This document shows positions 1 to 20,271 of a DNA stretch of 64,000 nucleotides, piece by piece. The first letter of the stretch is position 1; the number at the start of each line of letters is the position of its first letter. The position numbers and the translations under genes are program-made. This DNA comes from an uncultured Actinomycetota bacterium. Lineage in GTDB: Bacteria > Actinomycetota > Actinomycetes > Propionibacteriales > Nocardioidaceae. Below the pieces are notes generated by a model. The model searched no databases. It was not told the DNA's origin and saw only the letters and a program-made list of their open reading frames with translations. Location: positions 571,512 to 635,511 of the forward strand of contig CAWARQ010000002.1 in assembly GCA_963784545.1 (NCBI GenBank), given 5' to 3'.

Positions 1-298
1 AGAAGAACCGCAGCTGCCGCAGCGCCGCGGAGTGGAAGGTGCGGGCCTGGACGCCCGACGCGCCGAGCTGCCGCAGCCGGGTGCGCATCTCGCCGGCCGC
101 GCGAGTGGTGAACGTGACGGCCAGGGTGCTGGCCGGCTCGTAGACTCCGGTGGCCACGCCGTAGGCGATCCGGTGGGTGATCGCCCGGGTCTTGCCCGTG
201 CCGGCCCCGGCGAGCACGCGCACGGGCCCGCGCAGCGCCTCCGCGACCTGCCGCTGCTCGGGGTCGAGCGCGTCGAGCAGCGAGTCGGGGGCGGGCAC
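1..298 (-). CDS. uvrD2: ATP-dependent DNA helicase UvrD2 (N-terminal part, runs off the window)
   Basis: Manual translation from GTG at 298: [47 protein letters not shown]...[11 protein letters not shown] (UvrD motifs Q, I, Ia). TAGGGT -10 lies 7 nt upstream. Order next to mycoredoxin, nudC and adnAB matches the known actinobacterial locus. Confidence 0.9.
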
Positions 299-328
299 AT
301 CACGAACCCTAGAGGGGCTCGCCGACAC

Positions 329-2663: not shown

Positions 2664-2723
2664 GTGATCTCACCCCACTCGACCGCTCGCTTCGCTCGTG
2701 CTCTCGCGGGGACCCCGAAATGA
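2664..2723 (+). repeat. REP-like element (CTCGCTTCGCTCG core) directly upstream of deoD
   Basis: Core at 2686-2698 is shared with the elements at 10482-10562, 17991-18148 and about 18165-18205. Confidence 0.6.
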
Positions 2724-3421
2724 GCACCCACATCGGCGCCGCCTCCGGCGACATCGCCCCCACCGTCCTCCTCCCAGGCGACCCTCTGCGCGCCAAGTGG
2801 ATCGCGGAGAACTTCCTCGACGACGCCCGCTGCTACAGCGAGGTCCGCGGGATGCTCGGCTACACCGGCACCTGGAACGGCCAGCCGGTCTCGGTCCAGG
2901 GCTCGGGCATGGGCCAGCCGTCGATGGCGATCTACGTCAACGAGCTCTTCAAGGACTACGACGTCCAGAGCATCGTGCGAGTGGGCTCCTGCGGCGCGCT
3001 GACCGAGGACGTCGCGATCCGCGACCTGGTGATCGCCGTCGGCGCCTGCACCGACTCCTCGATGAACGACATCGCCTTCGAGGGGCTGCACTACGCGCCG
3101 GTGGCCGACTTCGCCCTCCTCCGGGACGCGGCAGCGGCGGCGCCCGAGGCGCACGTCGGCCTGATCTTCTCCTCCGACTCCTTCTACCCCGCACGGCCCG
3201 AGCTGATGAGCCGGATGGTCGAGCACGGCGTGCTGGCGGTGGAGATGGAGGCGGCGGGGCTCTACACGCTGGCGAAGAAGTACGGGCGGAAGGCGCTCGC
3301 GATCTGCACCGTCTCCGACCACATCGTCACCGGCGAGGAGACGACCGCGCAGGAGCGCGAGCAGACCTTCGAGAGGATGATCGACGTCGCGCTCACGGCT
3401 GCGCTGGGTCAGCCGGAGTAA
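2720..3421 (+). CDS. deoD: Purine-nucleoside phosphorylase, DeoD type
   Basis: MSTHIGAASGDIAPTVLLPGDPLRAKWIAE, GSGMGQPS, RVGSCG, VEMEAAGLY; 233 aa from ATG 2720. Confidence 0.93.
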   Translation: MSTHIGAASGDIAPTVLLPGDPLRAKWIAENFLDDARCYSEVRGMLGYTGTWNGQPVSVQGSGMGQPSMAIYVNELFKDYDVQSIVRVGSCGALTEDVAIRDLVIAVGACTDSSMNDIAFEGLHYAPVADFALLRDAAAAAPEAHVGLIFSSDSFYPARPELMSRMVEHGVLAVEMEAAGLYTLAKKYGRKALAICTVSDHIVTGEETTAQEREQTFERMIDVALTAALGQPE

Positions 3422-7000: not shown

Positions 7001-7273
7001 CGCCCGGGTGATCCGCTGGCGCAGCTCGGCGGCCGCCTTGGTCGTGAAGGTGAGGCCGAGGATCTCCTCGGGCCGCACACGCCCCGTCGCGACCAGCCAC
7101 ACCACCCGCTGGGCCATCAGGGTCGTCTTCCCCGAGCCGGCGCCGGCGACCACGACGGTGGGTCGGAGGTCGGCGGTGATCGCCTGCCACTGCTCGGGGC
7201 TCGCCTGGGGACCGCCCATGAGCGCCTGGAGCTCGGCCGGTGTGTCCACCGCGCGAGTGGTCGTGTCGGTCAC
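4091..7273 (-). CDS. adnB: Helicase-nuclease AdnB (UvrD-like motor plus C-terminal PD-(D/E)xK nuclease)
   Basis: AGAGSGKTT, LDEYQDT, TVHRAKGLEW, YVAFTRA, GRIDAVY...VVDWKT. GTG 7273 overlaps the adnA stop (GTGA). Confidence 0.88.
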   Translation of the reverse strand: MTDTTTRAVDTPAELQALMGGPQASPEQWQAITADLRPTVVVAGAGSGKTTLMAQRVVWLVATGRVRPEEILGLTFTTKAAAELRQRITRALGDAGLLDRSVVVEGEDVLEPTVATYHAYAATLLTDHGLRIGHEPDTRVITDASRYQLGARVIERFTGHIESLTDHPATAIQNLLALDGAMSEHLASEADVRAVDAEARAGFAAAYAEEEAGKARKTYLEAIGKAVHAIDRRSELLQLVAGYRRLKADLGLMDFGDQIELAARLVEEQPEVGALERERFRVVLLDEYQDTSVAQATMLARLFSGGHPVMAVGDPNQAIYGWRGASVSNILNFDETFPAADGRVHRLPLTINRRSDRRILEVANRLAEPLLERFGDKVARLQPAEDAGEGTVETLVFERAAEELEWLAQAVRAAHDGGAAWSDIGVLSRDNAQAEEVYDVLTSVDVPVEIVGLSGLIRLPEVAEIVATLTLLHDVTANPSMLTLLTGARWAIGPRDLRLLALRAAEISGARGRKAAASVADQLLQIADGIEPTELPALNDALESPGEATYSAEALERFGLLATELRRLRGHVGEPLLELVRRIIDTTGVDVELASATSTAAAARRDNVDLFVKAVAEFQSVDGDVTLPALLAYLTAEDSQGNGLDVATPTAADSVKLLTVHRAKGLEWAHVFCVGVGETRFPSGRSRTLWTSSPAVLPAPLRGDRADQPALQGYDKAALDAYRMDTRAHDAEEELRLGYVAFTRAAHHLAVTSYVWGDRTSAFGPSHYQRVVRDQLEEWGEPVEHWLDKPEGKQPNPNDEVDQSRPWPPTGQGEEARRRLAAADLVRSADPTAPDEGLDMVQAALVAEWDEELARLVREARSTRSHDVAVPLPESLSATGLARLESDPEAFARELARPMPREPMPAARFGTRFHGWVESRFGQQDLIDYDDVPGRADTGIDSDDELREVIARFEAGQFGERAPYAVEAPFSLVLDGQVIRGRIDAVYREEDGSFLVVDWKTNRTQSADPLQLAIYRQAWAELHEVDPDRVRAAFYYVRTDDLVEPGELPGRDELIALLPG

Positions 7274-10200
7274 TGGCTGATCACCGACCCTGCGCTCTTG
7301 GCCGGGCAGATGGCGACGAACTGGCACTCGCGGCAGTACGGACCGGCGGTCGCGGGGAAGGTCTCGGCGCGCACCAGCAGGGAGGCACGGGTCAAGCCGA
7401 GCTGCAGGGTCTCCCGCTCGGGGCCATCCTCGGCGTGCGCCGCCTGCGGTTGCACCTTCGCCCCGGTGGAGTCGTCCTCCACGCCGAGCTGGACGAGCTC
7501 GGCACCTCCGGAGCGGGCCGGGCGTCCGAGCTGCTCGTCGACGGCTCCGGTGTCGACGGCGTACTGGTAGAGCGCCAGCTGCAGGTCGCTCTTCACCTGC
7601 GGGCCGGTCGGGGCGCCACGTGAGGTCTTGAAGTCGACGACCACGACGCCCCCGTCGGCGTCCAGCTCCAGCCGGTCGGCGAACCCGACCAGCTCGATCT
7701 CCTGGTCGTCGATCGTGACCGTGCTCGCGAACTTCGCCTCGGCGGCGATCAGCTCGCGCGGGTTGGACTCGTGCCAGGCGACGAAGCGGTCGACGGCCCT
7801 GCGGATCCGCTCGTGCTCGCGGTGTCGCGACCACGGCGTGCGGAAGGCGAGCCGGTCCCAGACGGCGTCGACCTCGGCCATGAGGACGGCCGGGTCGGCC
7901 GGCAGCTCCTGCTTCGCGACGCGTTCGGCGAGGGCGTGCAGGATCTGGCCGAGGTTGGCGGCCTGGTGGGCCAGGGACACTCCCCCGGCCTCACGCTCGA
8001 AGTACCACTGGGCCGGGCAGACGACCATCGACTTCAGCATGCTGGCCGACACCGGCACGGGCCGGCCTGGGTCGCGCACCGGCGTCACGGCACGGGTGGC
8101 GGAACGTGTGCCCCACCAGGAGGACGGGTCGGCCGCGGGCACGAGCGCCCGGCCGTCGACCTCCTCGGCCGCGAGGGCGCCCAGACGGCGCGCCGCCGCC
8201 TCCCGCAACGGCACCGGGGTGGCGGGGTCGGCCGCCGTACGGCGGAGCTCGGCGACCAAGCCGCCCAGGGACAGGGGGCGGGGCGGGCGGCCGTCGCGGT
8301 GCTCGATCGTCACGCCGAGCTCGGCGAGGAAACGGGACGGCTGCTCACCGTCGTCCTCGGGGGACTGCACGGCGGTCACCACCAGCCGCCGGCGGGCCCG
8401 CGTGCAGGCGACGTAGAAGAGCCGGCGCTCCTCCATCAGCAGGGCGCGGGCGCTGGGCGGCTCCACCAGCTGCGCGCGACCGTCGGCGTGCAGGCCGATG
8501 CGGTCGGCACCGAGCAGTGACGTCCGTCGGCGTACGTCGGGCCAGCCCTCCTGCTGGACGTGCGCGACCACGACCAGCTCCCACTCGAGTCCCTTCGAGC
8601 GGTGGGCGGTGAGGAGCCGGACCGCTGACCCGCGCACCCCCTTCTCGGCCAGGGTGTCGGCCGGGATCTGCTGGGCCGAGAGCGAGGCGAGGAAGTCCGC
8701 GACACCGACGTGCTCGCGCTGCTCGGCGGCCCGCCCGGCCAGGTCGAACAGCGCCACGACCGAGTCGAGGTCGCGGTGGGCCCGGCGCGCCGACGCGCCG
8801 CCCGCCTCCACCTGGTCGCGCAGCCGGCGCGGCCAGGAGGTGCCGTTCCAGAGGTGCCAGATCAGGTCCTCGGCACCGGCGCCCCCGATGAGCAGGTCGG
8901 CCCCGGACCGCAGCAGGCCGGCGAGCCGCGCGGCCCGCTCGGTCTCCGGGCCGGAGAGGCCGTCGAGGAAGCCGTGCTGGACGACGGCGAGGCGCAGCAG
9001 CTCGCGCGACGGGCGAGGCCCGGATGTGGGTGGCTGGGCCTTGTCCCGGGCGCGCAGCCGACGGACGAGGGCTCGGAGGTCGCTGGCGTCCAGCCCGCCC
9101 AGCGGCGACAGCAGCAGGCCCTCGATCCGGCCAGGGTCGAGGTAACCGGAGTCGTCAGGATCGTGGTTGTCGAGGTTCACCACAGCGCGGACGGCGTCCA
9201 GCAGCGGCCGCACCGCCGGGTCGAGCACGAGCGGCAGGTCGTCGCCAGCGATCTCGACCGGGACGCCCGCCGCCGCGAGCGCGCGGCGCAGGGCGGGAAG
9301 GGTGGCGCGGCCGGAGCGCACCAGCACGGCCATGTCGTGCCACGCCAGGCCGTCCTCGAGGTGCGCCCGGCGGAGCAGGTCCCCGACGCGCTCGGCCTCG
9401 GCCCGCTCGGTGTCGAAGGTGAACACCTCGACCCGGCCGTCACCGTGCGGCCCCGGCTCAGCCAAGGGCTCGGCGAACGCGGCTCGGTCGGTGGGATCGA
9501 TGCTGCCGGTGAGGGTGAGGCGCTCGGCGACCCGGCCGGCCGCGAGCATCAGCCGGGGACCGAACCTCCGCGTGCGCCGCAGCACCACGACGGGGGCCTT
9601 GCTGCCGTCGGGGGCCGGGAACTGAACCGGGAAGTCGAGGATGCCGCGGACCTCGGCGCCCCGGAACCCGTAGATCGACTGGTGGGGGTCGCCGACCACG
9701 ACGAGGTTGCGGCCGTCCCCCGCCAGCGCACGCAGCAGGGCGACCTGGCCCGGGTCGGTGTCCTGGTACTCGTCCACGAAGACGTGGCTGAACTGCCGCC
9801 GCAGGTCCTCGCGGTGCGTCTCGGCCTCGATCACGGCGCGGCGGATGAGGTCGGGGTAGTCGGTCGCGCCGAGGTTGTCGAGGATCGTGAGGTACTGCTC
9901 GAGGAAGCGCCCCGCCGCGAGGAACTCCGGGACGCCGTCCTCACCGAGCCCGATCAGCCCGCCGGGGTCGAGCCCCTTCTCCCGGGCGCGGGCGAGCACC
10001 GCCTGCACCTCGAGGGCGAAGCCGCGCGTGCCCAGCGCGCGTTGGAGCTGCTCGGGCCAGGTGATCGACTCGGGGTTGTCGGTGAGCAGGGCACGCAGCA
10101 CCACGTCGGCCTCGGGCGCCGACAGCAGCCGCAACGGGGCGTCGTACAGCTCGCGGGGGCTGGAGGAACGGACGAGCCCATAGGCGAAGGAGTGGAACGT

Positions 10201-10485
10201 CGAGGCGATCGGCTGCGCGAGGGCGCGCCCGAGCCGCGCCGTGATCCGGTCGCGCAGCTGCTCGGCCGCCTTGCGGGAGAACGTGAGGGCCAGGATCGCC
10301 TCCGGCTTCACGCCGTCCTCGACCTTGCGGACGATCGCCTCGACCAGCGTCGTGGTCTTGCCGGTGCCGGGACCGGCCAGGACCAGGAGCGGCCCTCCGG
10401 TGTGGTCGACCACTCGCTGCTGCTCGGCGTCGAGCACCGGCGGCGCGAGGTGCGGCCGCTCGCGCACGAGCGTGTAGGTGGTCAT
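7270..10485 (-). CDS. adnA: Helicase-nuclease AdnA (UvrD-like plus nuclease with Fe-S cysteines)
   Basis: AGPGTGKTT, VDEYQDT, TAHRSKGLEW, GFADRLE...VVDFKT, CPAQW and CRECQFVAICP. Start set to ATG 10485 (MTTYTL), with a GAGGCGG SD. Confidence 0.88.
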   Translation of the reverse strand: MTTYTLVRERPHLAPPVLDAEQQRVVDHTGGPLLVLAGPGTGKTTTLVEAIVRKVEDGVKPEAILALTFSRKAAEQLRDRITARLGRALAQPIASTFHSFAYGLVRSSSPRELYDAPLRLLSAPEADVVLRALLTDNPESITWPEQLQRALGTRGFALEVQAVLARAREKGLDPGGLIGLGEDGVPEFLAAGRFLEQYLTILDNLGATDYPDLIRRAVIEAETHREDLRRQFSHVFVDEYQDTDPGQVALLRALAGDGRNLVVVGDPHQSIYGFRGAEVRGILDFPVQFPAPDGSKAPVVVLRRTRRFGPRLMLAAGRVAERLTLTGSIDPTDRAAFAEPLAEPGPHGDGRVEVFTFDTERAEAERVGDLLRRAHLEDGLAWHDMAVLVRSGRATLPALRRALAAAGVPVEIAGDDLPLVLDPAVRPLLDAVRAVVNLDNHDPDDSGYLDPGRIEGLLLSPLGGLDASDLRALVRRLRARDKAQPPTSGPRPSRELLRLAVVQHGFLDGLSGPETERAARLAGLLRSGADLLIGGAGAEDLIWHLWNGTSWPRRLRDQVEAGGASARRAHRDLDSVVALFDLAGRAAEQREHVGVADFLASLSAQQIPADTLAEKGVRGSAVRLLTAHRSKGLEWELVVVAHVQQEGWPDVRRRTSLLGADRIGLHADGRAQLVEPPSARALLMEERRLFYVACTRARRRLVVTAVQSPEDDGEQPSRFLAELGVTIEHRDGRPPRPLSLGGLVAELRRTAADPATPVPLREAAARRLGALAAEEVDGRALVPAADPSSWWGTRSATRAVTPVRDPGRPVPVSASMLKSMVVCPAQWYFEREAGGVSLAHQAANLGQILHALAERVAKQELPADPAVLMAEVDAVWDRLAFRTPWSRHREHERIRRAVDRFVAWHESNPRELIAAEAKFASTVTIDDQEIELVGFADRLELDADGGVVVVDFKTSRGAPTGPQVKSDLQLALYQYAVDTGAVDEQLGRPARSGGAELVQLGVEDDSTGAKVQPQAAHAEDGPERETLQLGLTRASLLVRAETFPATAGPYCRECQFVAICPAKSAGSVISQ

Positions 10486-10562
10486 GAGGCCGCCTCGCGA
10501 GGACACGAGCGCAGCGAGGCCCGGAGCGAGGTGCGCCGAGTGGCCAATCCAGGACCGGTCAT
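10482..10562 (-). mobile_element. 77-bp start-codon-associated element, copy 3; 26-aa mini-ORF MTGPGLATRRTSLRASLRSCPREAAS coupled to adnA
   Basis: Similar to the copies at 17991-18148. ATGACC appears at both ends, and the stop TGA overlaps the adnA ATG. The mobile-element label is inference. Confidence 0.6.
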
Positions 10563-10604
10563 GGAACCAACCCAATCATCCGGGGCCGACACTAGGGTCG
10601 AGCC

Positions 10605-11765
10605 ATGACCGAAGGCCCGCTCTCCGACCTGCTCGTCCTCGACCTGACCCGTGCGCTCGCGGGGCCGCACGCGGGGATGATGCTGGCCGACCAGGGCGCC
10701 CGCGTGATCAAGGTCGAGTCCCCCACCGGCGACGACTCGCGCGGGTGGGGGCCGCCGTTCGTCGGGCCGGACGACGCGCAGGAGTCGACGTACTTCTTCT
10801 CGGCCAACCGCAACAAGGAGTCCGTGGTCCTCGACCTCAAGGCCGACTCCGACAAGGAGACGCTCGCGCGGCTGATCGAGCGGGCCGACGTGCTGCTGGA
10901 GAACTTCCGGGTCGGCGTCCTGGACCGGCTCGGGTTCTCGGTCGCGCGGATGCACGAGCTCAACCCGCGGCTGGTGATCATGCAGATCACCGGGTTCGGC
11001 CACGACGGACCCGAGGCCACGCGCGCCGGCTACGACCAGATCGCCCAGGGTGAGGGCGGCCTGATGTCGCTGACCGGCACCGACCAGCCGACCAAGGTCG
11101 GCGTCCCGGTGGCCGACCTGATCGCGGGGATGTACGGCGCCTTCGGCGTGCTGGCCGCCCTGCACGAGCGCACGATCACGGGTCGCGGGAAGGTCGTCCA
11201 CACCTCACTGCTGGCCGGCATGGTCGGCGTGCACGCGTTCCAGGGCACCCGGTGGACGGTCGCCGGTGAGGTCCCGGGGCTGGCCGGTGGGCACCACCCG
11301 GCGATCGCGCCGTACGGGATGTTCGCCTCTGCGACGGCCCCGGTGCAGATCGCGTGCGGCTCGGAGAGCCTCTGGCGGGCGATGTGTGCGGCGTTCGGCT
11401 GGGACGCGACCGATCCGCGGTTCGCCACCAACGCTCTGCGGGTGCAGAACCGCGATGCTCTGATCGAGCAGATCGAGGGGCACTTCGCCTCGGCTCCGGC
11501 CGAGGACTGGCTGGCCGCCCTGGCCGAGGCCGGGGTGCCGGCCGGCAAGGTCCGGTCGCTGGACGACGTCTACTCCTGGGAGCAGACCCTGTCCCAGGGC
11601 TTGCTCGTCTCGGTCGACCACCCGACCGTCGGCCCGATCGACCTGCCCGGGTCCGCGCTCCGGTACGACGACAACGCCTACGCCGGTGGGCGGCCGGTCA
11701 ACGACCCGCCGCCCACCCTCGGCCAGCACACCGACGCCGTACGCCGCTGGCTGGACGGGAGCTGA
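10605..11765 (+). CDS. CoA-transferase family III (CaiB/BaiF)
   Basis: VLDLTRALAGP, VIKVESPTGDDSR, NRNKESVVLDLK, ENFRVG, GYDQIAQG; TAGGGT -10 is 6 nt upstream. Confidence 0.92.
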   Translation: MTEGPLSDLLVLDLTRALAGPHAGMMLADQGARVIKVESPTGDDSRGWGPPFVGPDDAQESTYFFSANRNKESVVLDLKADSDKETLARLIERADVLLENFRVGVLDRLGFSVARMHELNPRLVIMQITGFGHDGPEATRAGYDQIAQGEGGLMSLTGTDQPTKVGVPVADLIAGMYGAFGVLAALHERTITGRGKVVHTSLLAGMVGVHAFQGTRWTVAGEVPGLAGGHHPAIAPYGMFASATAPVQIACGSESLWRAMCAAFGWDATDPRFATNALRVQNRDALIEQIEGHFASAPAEDWLAALAEAGVPAGKVRSLDDVYSWEQTLSQGLLVSVDHPTVGPIDLPGSALRYDDNAYAGGRPVNDPPPTLGQHTDAVRRWLDGS

Positions 11766-16078: not shown

Positions 16079-17994
16079 CAGACCAGGTCGACCTCGGCGT
16101 GGGCGGCACCGTCGGCGAGCGTGGCGTAACCCGGCCCGCGGTCGAACATCGGAGCCTCCGCGCGCGCGGCCGCCAGCTCGCCCCGGCGGGTGGACGTGGC
16201 GTCAAGGTCCACGGCGAGCGAGTCGTCGTCGAGCGAGCCGGTCAGCACGACGCCGTACTGGTCGGAGGCGGCCTCGAGGGAGACCTTGCGCCAGACCACG
16301 TCGCGACACACGAGCGCCGGGTCGCGTTCAAGAGGGTCCCCCCAGCCGCCGCCACCGGTGGTCCGGATCCGGATCAGCTCTCCGGCCTTCACCGGCTCCG
16401 CGTCGGCCAGCGCGTCGACCTCGCGCTCGTGCGGCCCACCCGGGTCGACGGTCACCTGGAACGGAGAGCCCGCGAGGCCGCCCTTGACCCCCCAGCACGC
16501 CAGGATCGACCGGTCGGCGATCGACATGAAGTGGGCGTCCTTGAGCATCCGGATCTGCTTCTCGTAGCCCAGCCCGCCGCGGAACTTGCCCGCCCCACCG
16601 GAGTCGACCGCCAACGACAGCGATTCGACGAGGAACGGGAACCGCGACTCGGTGAACTCGCTCGGCAGGTTCCGCGAGTCCGGGACGACGTGGATGGTGT
16701 CCTCGCCGTCGGCGTAGTAGCGGCCACCGGAGCCGCCGCCGAGCACCTCCCGCATGAGGTAGGGCCGGCCCTCGCGGTCCTCGCCGTACACACCGGTGTA
16801 GCGGATCGTCTCCTGGTCCGCCGGCATCTTGCCGTCGACCGCCTTCGCGACGACACCGGCGAGGACGCCGAGCAGTCGCAGGATCACGAACGTGCGGGCG
16901 TTGGTCGGCGCCGGGAAGACCGGCGTGATCAGCGTCCCGGGCTCCGGGAAGCGCATCTCGATCAGCGGCACGATCCCCTCGTTGACGTCGAGCTCGGCCA
17001 TCCGCTCCGGCGACTCCGCCAGGTTGCGCAGGATCGGTGCCAGCCACTTCTTGAGGAAGACCCCGTCGGAGTAGTCGCCGCAGTGGTTGATCGGCCCCTT
17101 GGCCTGCGGGCCGGTGCCGTCGAAGTCGAGGACCAGCCGCTCACCGTCGGGGTCGTCGGCGGCCGTCCGGGTCAGGGTGATCCGCTGCGTGTGCAGCCGC
17201 GGCTCGTCGACGCCGTCGTGCTCGGCGTAGTCCTCCCAGGTCCAGGTCCCGACCGGGATCACCGACAGGATCTCGCGGCGGTACGTCGTGGTGGTGCGGT
17301 CGAGGATGGCGTCGAAGCAGGACTCCACGACCTCGACGCCGTACCGGTCGAACATCTCCCCCAGCCGGCGCGCGCCCATGAGGCAGGCGCTGCACTCGGC
17401 GTCCAGGTCGGCCGCCAGCGACTCGGGCATCCGGGAGTTGCGGGTCATGATCGCCAGCGCCGACCGGTTGGGGACGCCGGCGTCCCACAGCTTGATCGGC
17501 GGGACCATCAGCCCCTCCTCGAAGACGCTGGTCGCCTGGCTCGGCATGGAGCCGGGGACCGCGCCGCCGATGTCGTCGTGGTGGCCGAACGCCTGGACGA
17601 ACGCGACCACCCTGCCCGCGGAGAGGACAGGGACAGTCACGCAGAGGTCCGGGAGATGGCCGATGCCGCCCTCGGAGCGGTAGACGTCGTTGTGGAAGAA
17701 GACGTCGCCCTCCCTCATCTCCGCCAACGGGAAGTCGCGCGCGACCGGGTGGACGAGAGCGGAGTACGACCGACCGGTCAGCTTGCGCAACAGCCGGTCG
17801 TGGATGCCCGCACGGAAGTCGTGGGCGTCGCGGATCATCGGGCTTCGGCTGGTGCGCGCGATCGCGGTCTCGACCTCCATCTCGACGCTCGCCAGAGTGC
17901 CCTGGACGATCTCGACCAGCACCGGGTCGGCGCCCGCGCCGGCATCGTCGGTGAGGAAGCCGTACGGGAACTGGGTGGGTGCGCGCCTGCTCAT
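16078..17994 (-). CDS. Hydantoinase B/5-oxoprolinase family subunit
   Basis: RTSRSPMIRDAHDF, GGIGHLPD, GHHDDIGGAVPGSM, SIADRS, IRTTGGGGWGDPLERD. Start set to ATG 17994. Confidence 0.92.
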   Translation of the reverse strand: MSRRAPTQFPYGFLTDDAGAGADPVLVEIVQGTLASVEMEVETAIARTSRSPMIRDAHDFRAGIHDRLLRKLTGRSYSALVHPVARDFPLAEMREGDVFFHNDVYRSEGGIGHLPDLCVTVPVLSAGRVVAFVQAFGHHDDIGGAVPGSMPSQATSVFEEGLMVPPIKLWDAGVPNRSALAIMTRNSRMPESLAADLDAECSACLMGARRLGEMFDRYGVEVVESCFDAILDRTTTTYRREILSVIPVGTWTWEDYAEHDGVDEPRLHTQRITLTRTAADDPDGERLVLDFDGTGPQAKGPINHCGDYSDGVFLKKWLAPILRNLAESPERMAELDVNEGIVPLIEMRFPEPGTLITPVFPAPTNARTFVILRLLGVLAGVVAKAVDGKMPADQETIRYTGVYGEDREGRPYLMREVLGGGSGGRYYADGEDTIHVVPDSRNLPSEFTESRFPFLVESLSLAVDSGGAGKFRGGLGYEKQIRMLKDAHFMSIADRSILACWGVKGGLAGSPFQVTVDPGGPHEREVDALADAEPVKAGELIRIRTTGGGGWGDPLERDPALVCRDVVWRKVSLEAASDQYGVVLTGSLDDDSLAVDLDATSTRRGELAAARAEAPMFDRGPGYATLADGAAHAEVDLV

Positions 17995-18148
17995 GAGGCC
18001 ACCTCGCGAGGACACGAGCGAAGCGAGGCCCGGAGGGAGGTGTGCCGAATGGGCGATTCAATCCGGCTCATGAGGCCACCTCGCGAGGACACGAGCGCAG
18101 CGAGGCCCGGAGTGGGGTGTGCCGAATGGGCGATTCAGAACTGCTCAT
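17991..18148 (-). mobile_element. Two tandem 77-bp elements, each encoding a 26-aa mini-ORF, between hydantoinase A and B
   Basis: Units 17991-18067 and 18068-18144 are near-identical. Mini-ORFs are 18068-18148 (MSSSESPIRHTPLRASLRSCPREVAS) and 17991-18071 (MSRIESPIRHTSLRASLRSCPREVAS). ATGA overlaps occur at 18145-18148, 18068-18071 and 17991-17994. Confidence 0.8.
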
Positions 18149-20271
18149 TGCCCTGCCTCCGTGCGGGGGTTTCGAGACGCTCGCTGCGCTCGCTCCTCAA
18201 CCACCGACGACCTCCGGACGATCAGGTTGCGGTAGTCGTCGACGGTCGCGGTGAAGCCGGGGTGGATCGGCACGGTGGACCCGAACTCCTCGACGATCGC
18301 CGGACCGGGGACGACGGACCCAGGCCCCAGGTCGGGGCGCCACAGCAGCGGCGTCTCGACATACCCGTCGGTGGCGTCGAAGCAGACCTGGCGGGTGCCT
18401 CGCTCCGTCGGGTCGGGGGTTGCGCCGCCTGGCTCGGACCTACGGATCTCCGGGCGCTGGATCGGGCCGATGCCGCTGACCCGGAGGTTCACCCACTCGA
18501 CCTGCTGGCTCGGGTCGGTGGCGAAGTCGTAGCCGTAGAGCGCGCGGTGCTCGGTGTGGAAGGTGTCCGCGACCGCGGTCAGCGCCGCTGCGTCCAGGTC
18601 GCCGGCCGGCACCGGCACCCGGACCTCGAAGGCCTGGCCGAAGTAGCGAAGGTCGGCGGTGCGCTCGAAGACGTGCGCATCACCGGGGAATCCCTCCTTG
18701 TCCAGGGCGATCCGGGCCTGGTCGGTGAGCTCGGCGTACACGGCGTCGACCTCTCCCGCGTCCAGCGACTCCGCGAGCGCGACGTGGGTCTGGACGTAGT
18801 CGTTCTTCACGTCGACCGTGAGCAGCCCGAAGGCGGACACGTTGCCGGGGTCCGGTGGCACGAGGACCGTCGGGATGCCGAGGATGTCCATCAGCCGGCA
18901 CAGCAACAACGAACCGGAGCCGCCGAAGGTGGTGAGCGTGAAGTCCCGGACGTCGAGGCCGCGCTTGACGGTGACCTGCCGCAGGGCGTTGGCCTGGTTC
19001 CACGCCGAGATTTCCAGGACGCCGGCCGCGGCCGCCTCGGGGCTCAGCCCGAGCTGCGCGGCGAGAGCCGTCACGCCGCTCTTCGCCGCCTCGGCGTCGA
19101 GAGGGATCTCGCCCCCGAGCAGGTGCGGCGGGATGCGGCCGAGGAAGAGGTGCGCGTCGGTGATGGTGACGTCGCTCCCGCCCTTGGCGTAGCAGAGCGG
19201 ACCTGGGTCCGCGCCCGCGCTCTGCGGCCCGACCTTGAGCGTGCCCTCGGGGCTCAGCCACGCGATCGAGCCGCCGCCCGCGCCGACCGTGACGACGTCG
19301 ATCATCGGGATCTTGCTGGGGAACGCGCCGACGCTCCCCTCGGTCGTGAGCGTCGGGTTGCCGTCGATCACCACGCTGACGTCGGTCGAGGTTCCTCCGC
19401 CGTCGCTGGTCAGCACCCGGTCGAAGCCGGCGACCTTCGCGATCAGCGCGGCACCCAGGGCTCCGGCCGCCGGTCCCGACAGCACCGTGGTGATCGGCTG
19501 GTGCACGACCTCGTCGGCGGAGAGGACGCCGCCGTTGGACTTCATCACGTAGAACGGCAGCGAGCGCTGGGCGTTGTCGGCCAGCCGGCTCTTGATGTTG
19601 TTGACGTACGCCGAGAGCCGAGGCTTGACCGCGGCATCGACCAGCGTCGTCATCGCGCGCTCGTACTCGCGGTACTCGCGCAGCACCTCGCTGGAGATCG
19701 AGACGACCGCGTCCGGGTGCTCCTCGCTGAGGATGACCCGCATCCGCTCCTCGTGCGCGGGGTTGGCGTAGGCGTGCAGGAAGCAGACGCCGAGGGTGTT
19801 GATCCCCTGGTCCTTGAACCAGCGCGCAGCCGTGCGCGCCAACTCCTCGTCGAACGGCCGGACCTCGGCGCCGGTGAAGTCCAGGCGGCCGCCGACCTCC
19901 TTGACCAGGTGTCGCGGGACGATCCGGTCGGGCTTGACCCAGAAGTAGGAGTTGCCGTACCCGTCGGGCACCGACTGGCGAGCGATCTCCAGCATCGCGC
20001 CGTAGCCCTCGGTGGTGAGGTAGCCGAGCGCTTCGACCTTGCCCTCGAGCAGCTGGTTGGTGGCCACGGTCGTGCCGTGGGAGACGGCGGTGACGGCGTC
20101 GTACTCGGCGCCGATGAGGTCCAGCACCTTGTCGATCCCGGCCAGGAACCCGTCGGCGGGGTTGCTCGGGGTGGACGGCGTCTTGGTCGTGACGACCCGG
20201 CCGGAGTCCTCCTCGAAGGCGACGACGTCGGTGAACGTGCCCCCGGTGTCGATCCCGATCCTGATCCGCAT
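18145..20271 (-). CDS. Hydantoinase A/5-oxoprolinase family ATP-binding subunit
   Basis: IGIDTGGTFTD, HGTTVATN, SGPAAG, DGGGTSTDV, GAGGGSIA, GPQSAGADPGP; 708 aa. Confidence 0.93.
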   Translation of the reverse strand: MRIRIGIDTGGTFTDVVAFEEDSGRVVTTKTPSTPSNPADGFLAGIDKVLDLIGAEYDAVTAVSHGTTVATNQLLEGKVEALGYLTTEGYGAMLEIARQSVPDGYGNSYFWVKPDRIVPRHLVKEVGGRLDFTGAEVRPFDEELARTAARWFKDQGINTLGVCFLHAYANPAHEERMRVILSEEHPDAVVSISSEVLREYREYERAMTTLVDAAVKPRLSAYVNNIKSRLADNAQRSLPFYVMKSNGGVLSADEVVHQPITTVLSGPAAGALGAALIAKVAGFDRVLTSDGGGTSTDVSVVIDGNPTLTTEGSVGAFPSKIPMIDVVTVGAGGGSIAWLSPEGTLKVGPQSAGADPGPLCYAKGGSDVTITDAHLFLGRIPPHLLGGEIPLDAEAAKSGVTALAAQLGLSPEAAAAGVLEISAWNQANALRQVTVKRGLDVRDFTLTTFGGSGSLLLCRLMDILGIPTVLVPPDPGNVSAFGLLTVDVKNDYVQTHVALAESLDAGEVDAVYAELTDQARIALDKEGFPGDAHVFERTADLRYFGQAFEVRVPVPAGDLDAAALTAVADTFHTEHRALYGYDFATDPSQQVEWVNLRVSGIGPIQRPEIRRSEPGGATPDPTERGTRQVCFDATDGYVETPLLWRPDLGPGSVVPGPAIVEEFGSTVPIHPGFTATVDDYRNLIVRRSSVVEERAQRASRNPRTEAGQ

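Follow-up and report, generated by a model that had tools for sequence, protein, structure and literature searches.

A start-codon repeat family resembling MIRU in an actinobacterial genome, and its copy at adnA

The adnA gene of this bacterium carries a 77-bp repeat unit on its start codon. The unit belongs to a family that occupies start codons throughout the host genome. Our preferred reading, to which we give a probability of about 0.8, is that a lineage-specific MIRU-like repeat inserted on the adnA start codon, and that its mini-ORF hands ribosomes to adnA. We analysed a window of 64,000 nucleotides (the whole stretch of DNA under study) together with the rest of the genome and the genomes of relatives. 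The features of the window are the following.

2670..2724, plus strand: probable decayed relic of a unit (weak match; window E=0.005 over a 27-nt core)
7270..10485, minus strand: adnA, 1071 codons, for the AdnA subunit of the AdnAB helicase-nuclease (family and structure matches, orthologues)
10482..10485, minus strand: ATGA overlap, with the mini-ORF TGA (10484..10482) over the adnA ATG (10485..10483)
10482..10562, minus strand: repeat unit, coextensive with the mini-ORF; 81 nt including both ATGA ends, inserted length 77 bp
10493..10497, minus strand: SD-like CGAGG within the unit, 7 nt 5' of the adnA ATG; putative function
10559..10579, minus strand: ORF MIGLVP of the first-pass annotation; the string ATGATTGGGTTGGTTCCATGA (MIGLVP*) exists and lies inside the spacer, -10 element and discriminator
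10570..10591, minus strand: predicted PafBC-type (RecA-NDp) promoter, with TGTCGG at 10591..10586, an N10 spacer and the -10 element TTGGGT at 10575..10570
10605..11765, plus strand: divergent family III CoA-transferase gene (family match)
17991..18148, minus strand: tandem pair of units from this family, lying between hyuA and hyuB with a spacing of exactly 77 nt; orthologues have an empty ATGA overlap

The unit at adnA and the empty sites of relatives

The 1071-codon ORF is the orthologue of AdnA. Among solved structures its product best matches chain A of M. smegmatis AdnAB (E=1e-108), and the AdnB chain follows with E=1e-33. Its orthologues reach 76% amino-acid identity. They come nearly all from Nocardioides, with two from Marmoricola and some from Actinomycetota/Propionibacteriales MAGs. 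Since the best of these orthologues are nearly all titled Nocardioides, we assign the host genome (3.11 Mb, 71% G+C) to this genus.

On the minus strand, the locus reads ...TAGTGTCGGCCCCGGATGATTGGGTTGGTTCC ATGACCGGTCCTGG...GAGGCGGCCTC ATGACCACCTACACG. The ATG at 10562..10560 opens the mini-ORF MTGPGLATRRTSLRASLRSCPREAAS*, of 26 codons. ATGACC flanks the unit on either side, and the separation between both copies is exactly 77 bp. The unit matches the family HMM with a nhmmer E-value of 1.1e-20 (0 matches expected from shuffles) and the model R1 with E=1.8e-23. It shows 84% identity over 85 nt with the two tandem units at hyuA/hyuB. A first-pass annotation of the window had described this stretch as a third copy of the 77-bp unit, with a 26-residue mini-ORF whose TGA overlaps the adnA ATG. 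Both descriptions were confirmed, and all its coordinates and strings are correct.

The SD-like element is not particular to this copy. Most units have (A/C/G)GAGG at equal spacing, 7 nt before the 3' start codon (alignment A1, columns 66-70).

The frame of adnA is open upstream as far as TTG 10575, a codon within the promoter -10 element. A start at this TTG would make the unit a 30-residue N-terminal extension of AdnA, and the first-pass annotation had named such a read-through as fatal to its own claim. We consider it next to impossible. Orthologues begin at the position of ATG 10485, with the N-terminus MTTYTLVR aligning with their M..TTYRLVR. The alignment with the solved AdnA begins at query residue 29 against chain residue 21. 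On these two results we reject the extension. Moreover, the TTG is the first triplet of the predicted -10 element and hence would lie upstream of the transcript start, and open frames this long are common at 71% G+C.

The family HMM found 0 matches in 80 orthologous adnA loci of other Nocardioides, each of about 7 kb. The first-pass annotation had proposed aligning the regions upstream of adnA for presence or absence of the unit and for the empty site. It would have given up its claim if all orthologues had this region with no empty site. In fact all 80 loci are empty, and the adnA unit is therefore an insertion. The junctions at the glycerol kinase gene, the XdhC-like gene, rsmI and hyuB are also empty in the orthologues examined. 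Relatives (L040, L045, L052 and L069) read ...TTGGGT-GGAGCC-ATGACCACG... at adnA, so the ancestral empty site can be reconstructed as TTGGGT-N6-7-ATGACCACC.

Other repeats were observed in these regions. Some other Nocardioides (L165, L172, L175 and L176) have different small inserts at the hyuA/hyuB ATGA junction, for example GGTCTCGACAAGCTCGACCACC and a tandem CAGCTCGACCACCGAAG. For several repeat families, this junction seems to act as a hot spot. A second dispersed repeat, CGGTGGTTGAGGAGCGAGCG(G/C)AGCGAGCGTCTCGAAACCCC, is present in the window at 18165-18206 (minus strand) and at no fewer than 54 sites in the host genome (G000), being commoner than the 77-nt family. One of its copies makes up the 3' end of hyuA, in frame (..SSVVEERAQRASRNPRTEAGQ*), and the two 77-bp units follow immediately. 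The relic at 2670-2724 (plus strand) preserves the core CTCGCTTCGCTCGTG..CTCGCGGGG, and its 3' end falls on the ATGAGC with which a nucleoside-phosphorylase-like gene starts at 2721.

The adnA promoter and the proposed ribosome relay

The published PafBC motif is tGTCgg(N10)tA(N3)T (PMC8635444), and mycobacterial adnA is exclusively PafBC-dependent (PMC8682763). The adnA promoter of the window reads in full TGTCGG-CCCCGGATGA-TTGGGT. Its spacing agrees exactly with the published motif, and T is found at -10 positions 1 and 6. Like mycobacterial PafBC/RecA-NDp promoters, it presents TGTCGG, a spacer of 10 nt and a -10 hexamer whose last base is T, and adnA is the gene controlled. However, the second base of its -10 element is T instead of A. 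Most Nocardioides orthologues likewise show T, G or C at this base, unlike the mycobacterial promoters. By its motif, the adnA promoter would be of the PafBC type, and we predict PafBC control here.

TGTC[GA]G occurs at most 200 nt upstream of adnA in 73 of the 80 orthologous loci. The majority of those 73 have TGTCGGnn-N8-TnnnnT, then the adnA ATG or GTG 6-7 nt on. In the host genome, the same motif with an ATG or GTG 6-7 nt later precedes sbcD, uvrB, uvrC, a recC-like gene, nth and others. It means that a PafBC-type regulon and the leaderless layout are present in this bacterium. Promoters of the form TGTCGG-N10-TAnnnT were located at C1:60444, C3:186998, C3:152079, C4:1381401, C4:1459811 and other positions, and tmk is also among their genes. 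One more is seen at the left edge of the window (about 298-327, minus strand), with a leaderless ATG/GTG, before a UvrD/PcrA-like helicase gene.

The ATG of the mini-ORF (10562) stands 7 nt past TTGGGT. The transcript is predicted to start at this ATG and to be leaderless.

The first-pass annotation had read this stretch differently. It proposed MIGLVP as a further mini-ORF coupled to the first, close behind a -10 element TAGTGT. TAGTGT is present at 10594..10589 (minus strand). It straddles the TGTCGG element and, on the opposite strand, the putative TAGGGT -10 of the CoA-transferase gene. Neither TAGTGT as a -10 element nor MIGLVP as a functional mini-ORF is supported. The stretch is a conserved PafBC-type promoter, and the ATG of the ORF falls in the spacer. 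Because it lies inside spacer, -10 element and discriminator, this ORF is probably not transcribed.

The CoA-transferase gene was observed to have TAGGGT (10593-10598, plus strand) and 6 nt before its ATG at 10605. Its promoter would be back to back with the adnA TGTCGG. This gene is probably leaderless as well, with TAGGGT as its putative -10.

In the preferred reading, the ancestral adnA, like adnA in other Nocardioides, would have been leaderless and driven by a PafBC-type DNA-damage promoter. The repeat would have inserted exactly at the (A/G)TGA of the adnA start codon, and the own ATG of the 77-bp insert would now occupy the old start position. For this reason, the leaderless transcript would open with the 26-codon mini-ORF. 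Ribosomes translating the mini-ORF would terminate at the UGA that overlaps the adnA AUG (AUGA) and restart there, aided by the CGAGG of the unit 7 nt upstream. Expression of adnA would thus survive the insertion.

The family across the host genome

Iterated nhmmer searches gave 42 units at 28 loci of the host genome; 19 of the loci have a single copy, and the other 9 have arrays of 2-3 units. The first-pass annotation was right to see the same device before an unrelated operon, but the unit is far from limited to two operons. The usual period of 77 nt rises to 89 or 101 nt in variants. At all 28 loci, the unit is co-oriented with the downstream ORF (83-1071 codons), whose start codon lies in the 3' (A/G)TGA of the unit. 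Both unit ends present xTGA at every locus.

At about 22 loci, a long upstream gene with high GC3 has its TGA in the start codon of the first unit. The orthologues of those operon junctions have a plain ATGA/GTGA stop/start overlap. Six loci, adnA included, are promoter-proximal. Four of the other five copies show TAnnnT at -12/-13 of the first unit's ATG (TACGGT, TACGCT, TAGGGT and TAGGAT), a pattern with a genome-wide frequency of 0.00035 per position. The sixth locus, rsmI, has CATGAT and 7 nt, and this hexamer is conserved before a leaderless-looking rsmI start in relatives. Since the operon and the promoter-proximal loci share the placement, xTGA start codons are occupied whether the gene is coupled or leaderless. 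In both placements, the first ATG of the insert replaces the old start ATG.

The reading frame of the unit is preserved. All 38 full-length units remain open over 26, 30 or 34 codons. None of the length variants (+12 and +24 nt, and +9 nt in genome G072) breaks the frame, and the three 5'-truncated copies are in frame with the overlapping upstream stop. The frame is intact at 27 of the 28 loci, the exception being the copy before metG. That copy (G000:C4:487271-487352) has 82 nt; one additional base joins the frames of the mini-ORF and metG, and 6 nt before the ATG there is a -10, TAGGAT. Either the copy has decayed or it extends the N-terminus by 27 residues. One point weighs against the argument from frame preservation: at 10-15% divergence, an open ORF is partly expected without selection.

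Intact frames would also suit a peptide with a function of its own, for example a small protein or a leader peptide regulating adnA. In its favor, the C-terminal half of the peptide, LRASLRSCP, is nearly invariant. However, the N-terminal third is hypervariable, and 28 unrelated genes have this same peptide before them. Between units, the 27-nt core does not vary at the nucleotide level, third codon positions included. Outside the core, the changes are mostly non-synonymous (codon 22 R/Q/H, codon 24 A/V/E). The unit is also missing from nearly all congeners (below). A function of the peptide is, for these reasons, very unlikely.

The invariant core could instead suggest a structured RNA or a REP-like palindrome, acting as a terminator, a stabiliser or a protein-binding site. 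We hold this to be exceedingly improbable. The unit folds no better than shuffled sequences do (z=-0.41). In the consensus fold only short helices form, the covariation term is -0.14 kcal/mol and no convincing structure emerges; an Rfam scan of 10300-10800 returned zero matches. The conservation of third positions in the core indicates that the DNA or RNA itself is constrained in some way, which the relay model does not account for.

The head of each first unit was matched against the gene downstream of it and, as a control, against permuted genes. In single copies, 0-2 nt are shared beyond xTGA, which is chance level (mean 0.75, permutation p=0.72). In contrast, arrays share 1-8 nt (mean 4.1, p<5e-5), and the difference between arrays and single copies is significant (Mann-Whitney p=7e-5). 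The heads of arrays are target-derived over about 7-12 nt. These bases are ancestral to the gene in element-free orthologues, which start with ATGAGCGT(C/G)CTC (glycerol kinase-like), M-x-W (XdhC-like), ATGACCGG (rsmI) and ATGAGC(A/C)G (hyuB). Unequal crossing-over or gene conversion was discarded as a source of these heads; the first unit of the array already has the head, and no core lies upstream of it.

The head of the adnA unit seems to have another origin. Its nearest relative is a unit of the rsmI array, with 6/81 mismatches. The ancestral rsmI start matches the head of the adnA unit, and the adnA start does not. This head would thus seem to come from the donor, and the 6-nt identity may have helped the event.

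These results bear on the mode of insertion. The first-pass annotation had taken the hexamer for a target-site duplication (TSD) that follows the target gene, as expected for a MITE-like element moved by transposase cut-and-paste. ATGACC flanks the adnA unit and ATGAGC the hyuB units, and arrays do share about 7-12 ancestral nucleotides with their gene. In addition, tetranucleotide direct repeats are taken as a sign of transposition in the account of MIRU given in PMC3184786. The hexamer duplication did not hold for adnA or the other single copies. The permutation test puts it within chance there, and only xTGA is common to all loci. What stood was the target-derived heads of tandem arrays. 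The head ATGACC (ATGACCGG) also occurs before an ATGAGC gene (C4:605489) and a GTGAGC gene (C4:1573237). Likewise, the shared flank varies from 3 to 12 nt while the 77-nt period is constant, which is impossible for a fixed staggered cut. No terminal inverted repeats were found in the unit, nor a stable fold, and a Y1 transposase gene was not found in four carrier genomes. Cut-and-paste transposition is unlikely.

Template switching at microhomology would fit the flank data, followed by slippage that becomes likelier as the flanking repeat lengthens. For the spread of the family, copy-choice or microhomology at xTGA seems to us more likely than a transposase that makes a TSD of fixed length. 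A fuller version can be proposed only tentatively, and we would sooner bet against it. Free of any transposase, the family would spread as replication switches templates at the xTGA microhomology of start codons, and at times a few bases of the target gene would be copied along. The resulting longer direct repeats would drive tandem amplification, and the leaderless adnA would become SD- and uORF-dependent. If true, the output of adnA would depend on reinitiation efficiency, and its translational control would be rewired.

Distribution and comparison with known repeats

We searched other genomes with the model R1, scoring 30 candidates per genome, so the counts per genome are lower bounds. A high copy number of the family was found in this genome only. 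Among 150 other Nocardioides genomes, 9 have any match and only 3 have good ones. The good copies are diverged and present the same xTGA architecture (at least 6 in G072, at least 4 in G111 and at least 1 in G036), one example lying between nadD and rsfS. In 150 Propionibacteriales genomes, there were zero convincing matches. In 150 genomes sampled across the class, nothing was convincing except in G376, a genome of another family of the class that has a related core. This core, CTCCGGGCCTCGCT..CGCTCGTGTCCTCGGGAGG..GTGA, is located between pntA and pntB (L138, G376:C1:2020459-2020531). This core may predate the Nocardioides expansion and reach further than it. The single BLAST match from a plasmid collection, in a Rhodococcus plasmid, lies inside a DoxX coding sequence and was rejected as chance. 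An exact-protein search with the adjacent CoA-transferase, aimed at sister strains, gave zero matches.

The Y1 transposase domain PF01797 is absent from the carriers G000, G072, G111 and G036; the same search was positive in 6 control genomes. Our literature search on MIRU-like elements of Nocardioides and other Actinobacteria yielded nothing of relevance. Compared with published families, the element seems to be a new, narrow-range MIRU-like family, undescribed as far as we found, for which we suggest "start-codon mini-ORF repeat".

The main interest of the family is twofold. First, the adnA copy lies at the predicted +1 of a conserved, leaderless PafBC-type promoter. With 80 empty relatives on one side and a mini-ORF slotted in at +1 on the other, it is a clean natural experiment. 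It offers a direct test of leaderless initiation plus termination-reinitiation sustaining a 1071-codon gene. Second, the heads of arrays contrast with those of single copies. That target-derived heads go together with arrays gives a clue to the movement of MIRU-like elements. On the practical side, such units can mislead gene callers into spurious small ORFs and wrong start codons, and the arrays are likely VNTR markers.

MITEs and REP/BIME elements are, like this family, short, non-autonomous and dispersed intergenic repeats. In contrast with them, the family keeps a strict phase and orientation relative to start codons. It shows neither the terminal inverted repeats and fixed-length TSD that define MITEs, nor the palindromic hairpin of REP elements. 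The Y1 HUH transposase gene of the REP/RAYT and IS200/IS605 systems (RAYT or IS200-type) is likewise missing from the carrier genomes.

The MIRU of mycobacteria are the closest in design. According to published summaries of Supply et al. 1997 (PMC12548453, PMC3184786) and to PMC4213456, MIRU units measure 40-100 bp, including a 77-bp class, with 40-50 copies per genome. They often form short tandem arrays between co-oriented genes and are transcribed within operons. They are summarised as having a small ORF that overlaps the adjacent stop and start codons, with -4 coupling and insertion at start codons. Tetranucleotide repeats at both ends, and empty and filled sites in related species, complete these descriptions. 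The present family agrees in unit size, in tens of loci and in short arrays (42 units, 28 loci, 9 arrays). It also agrees in co-orientation, in an internal ORF overlapping the stop and start codons of the neighbours, in empty against filled sites and in the tetranucleotide xTGA at both ends. By every structural criterion it shares the MIRU design, a likeness drawn from published descriptions and not from sequence homology.

There are two differences. The host belongs to a different order (Nocardioides, Propionibacteriales), and several copies, adnA included, sit on leaderless starts right behind the -10 element, a placement not mentioned in those summaries of MIRU. The MIRU design is then not a mycobacterial peculiarity, since it occurs in Nocardioides, with 42 units in one genome. 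In both cases, a repeat could occupy a start codon and leave the gene active, as it comes with a relay ORF and a ribosome-binding site of its own.
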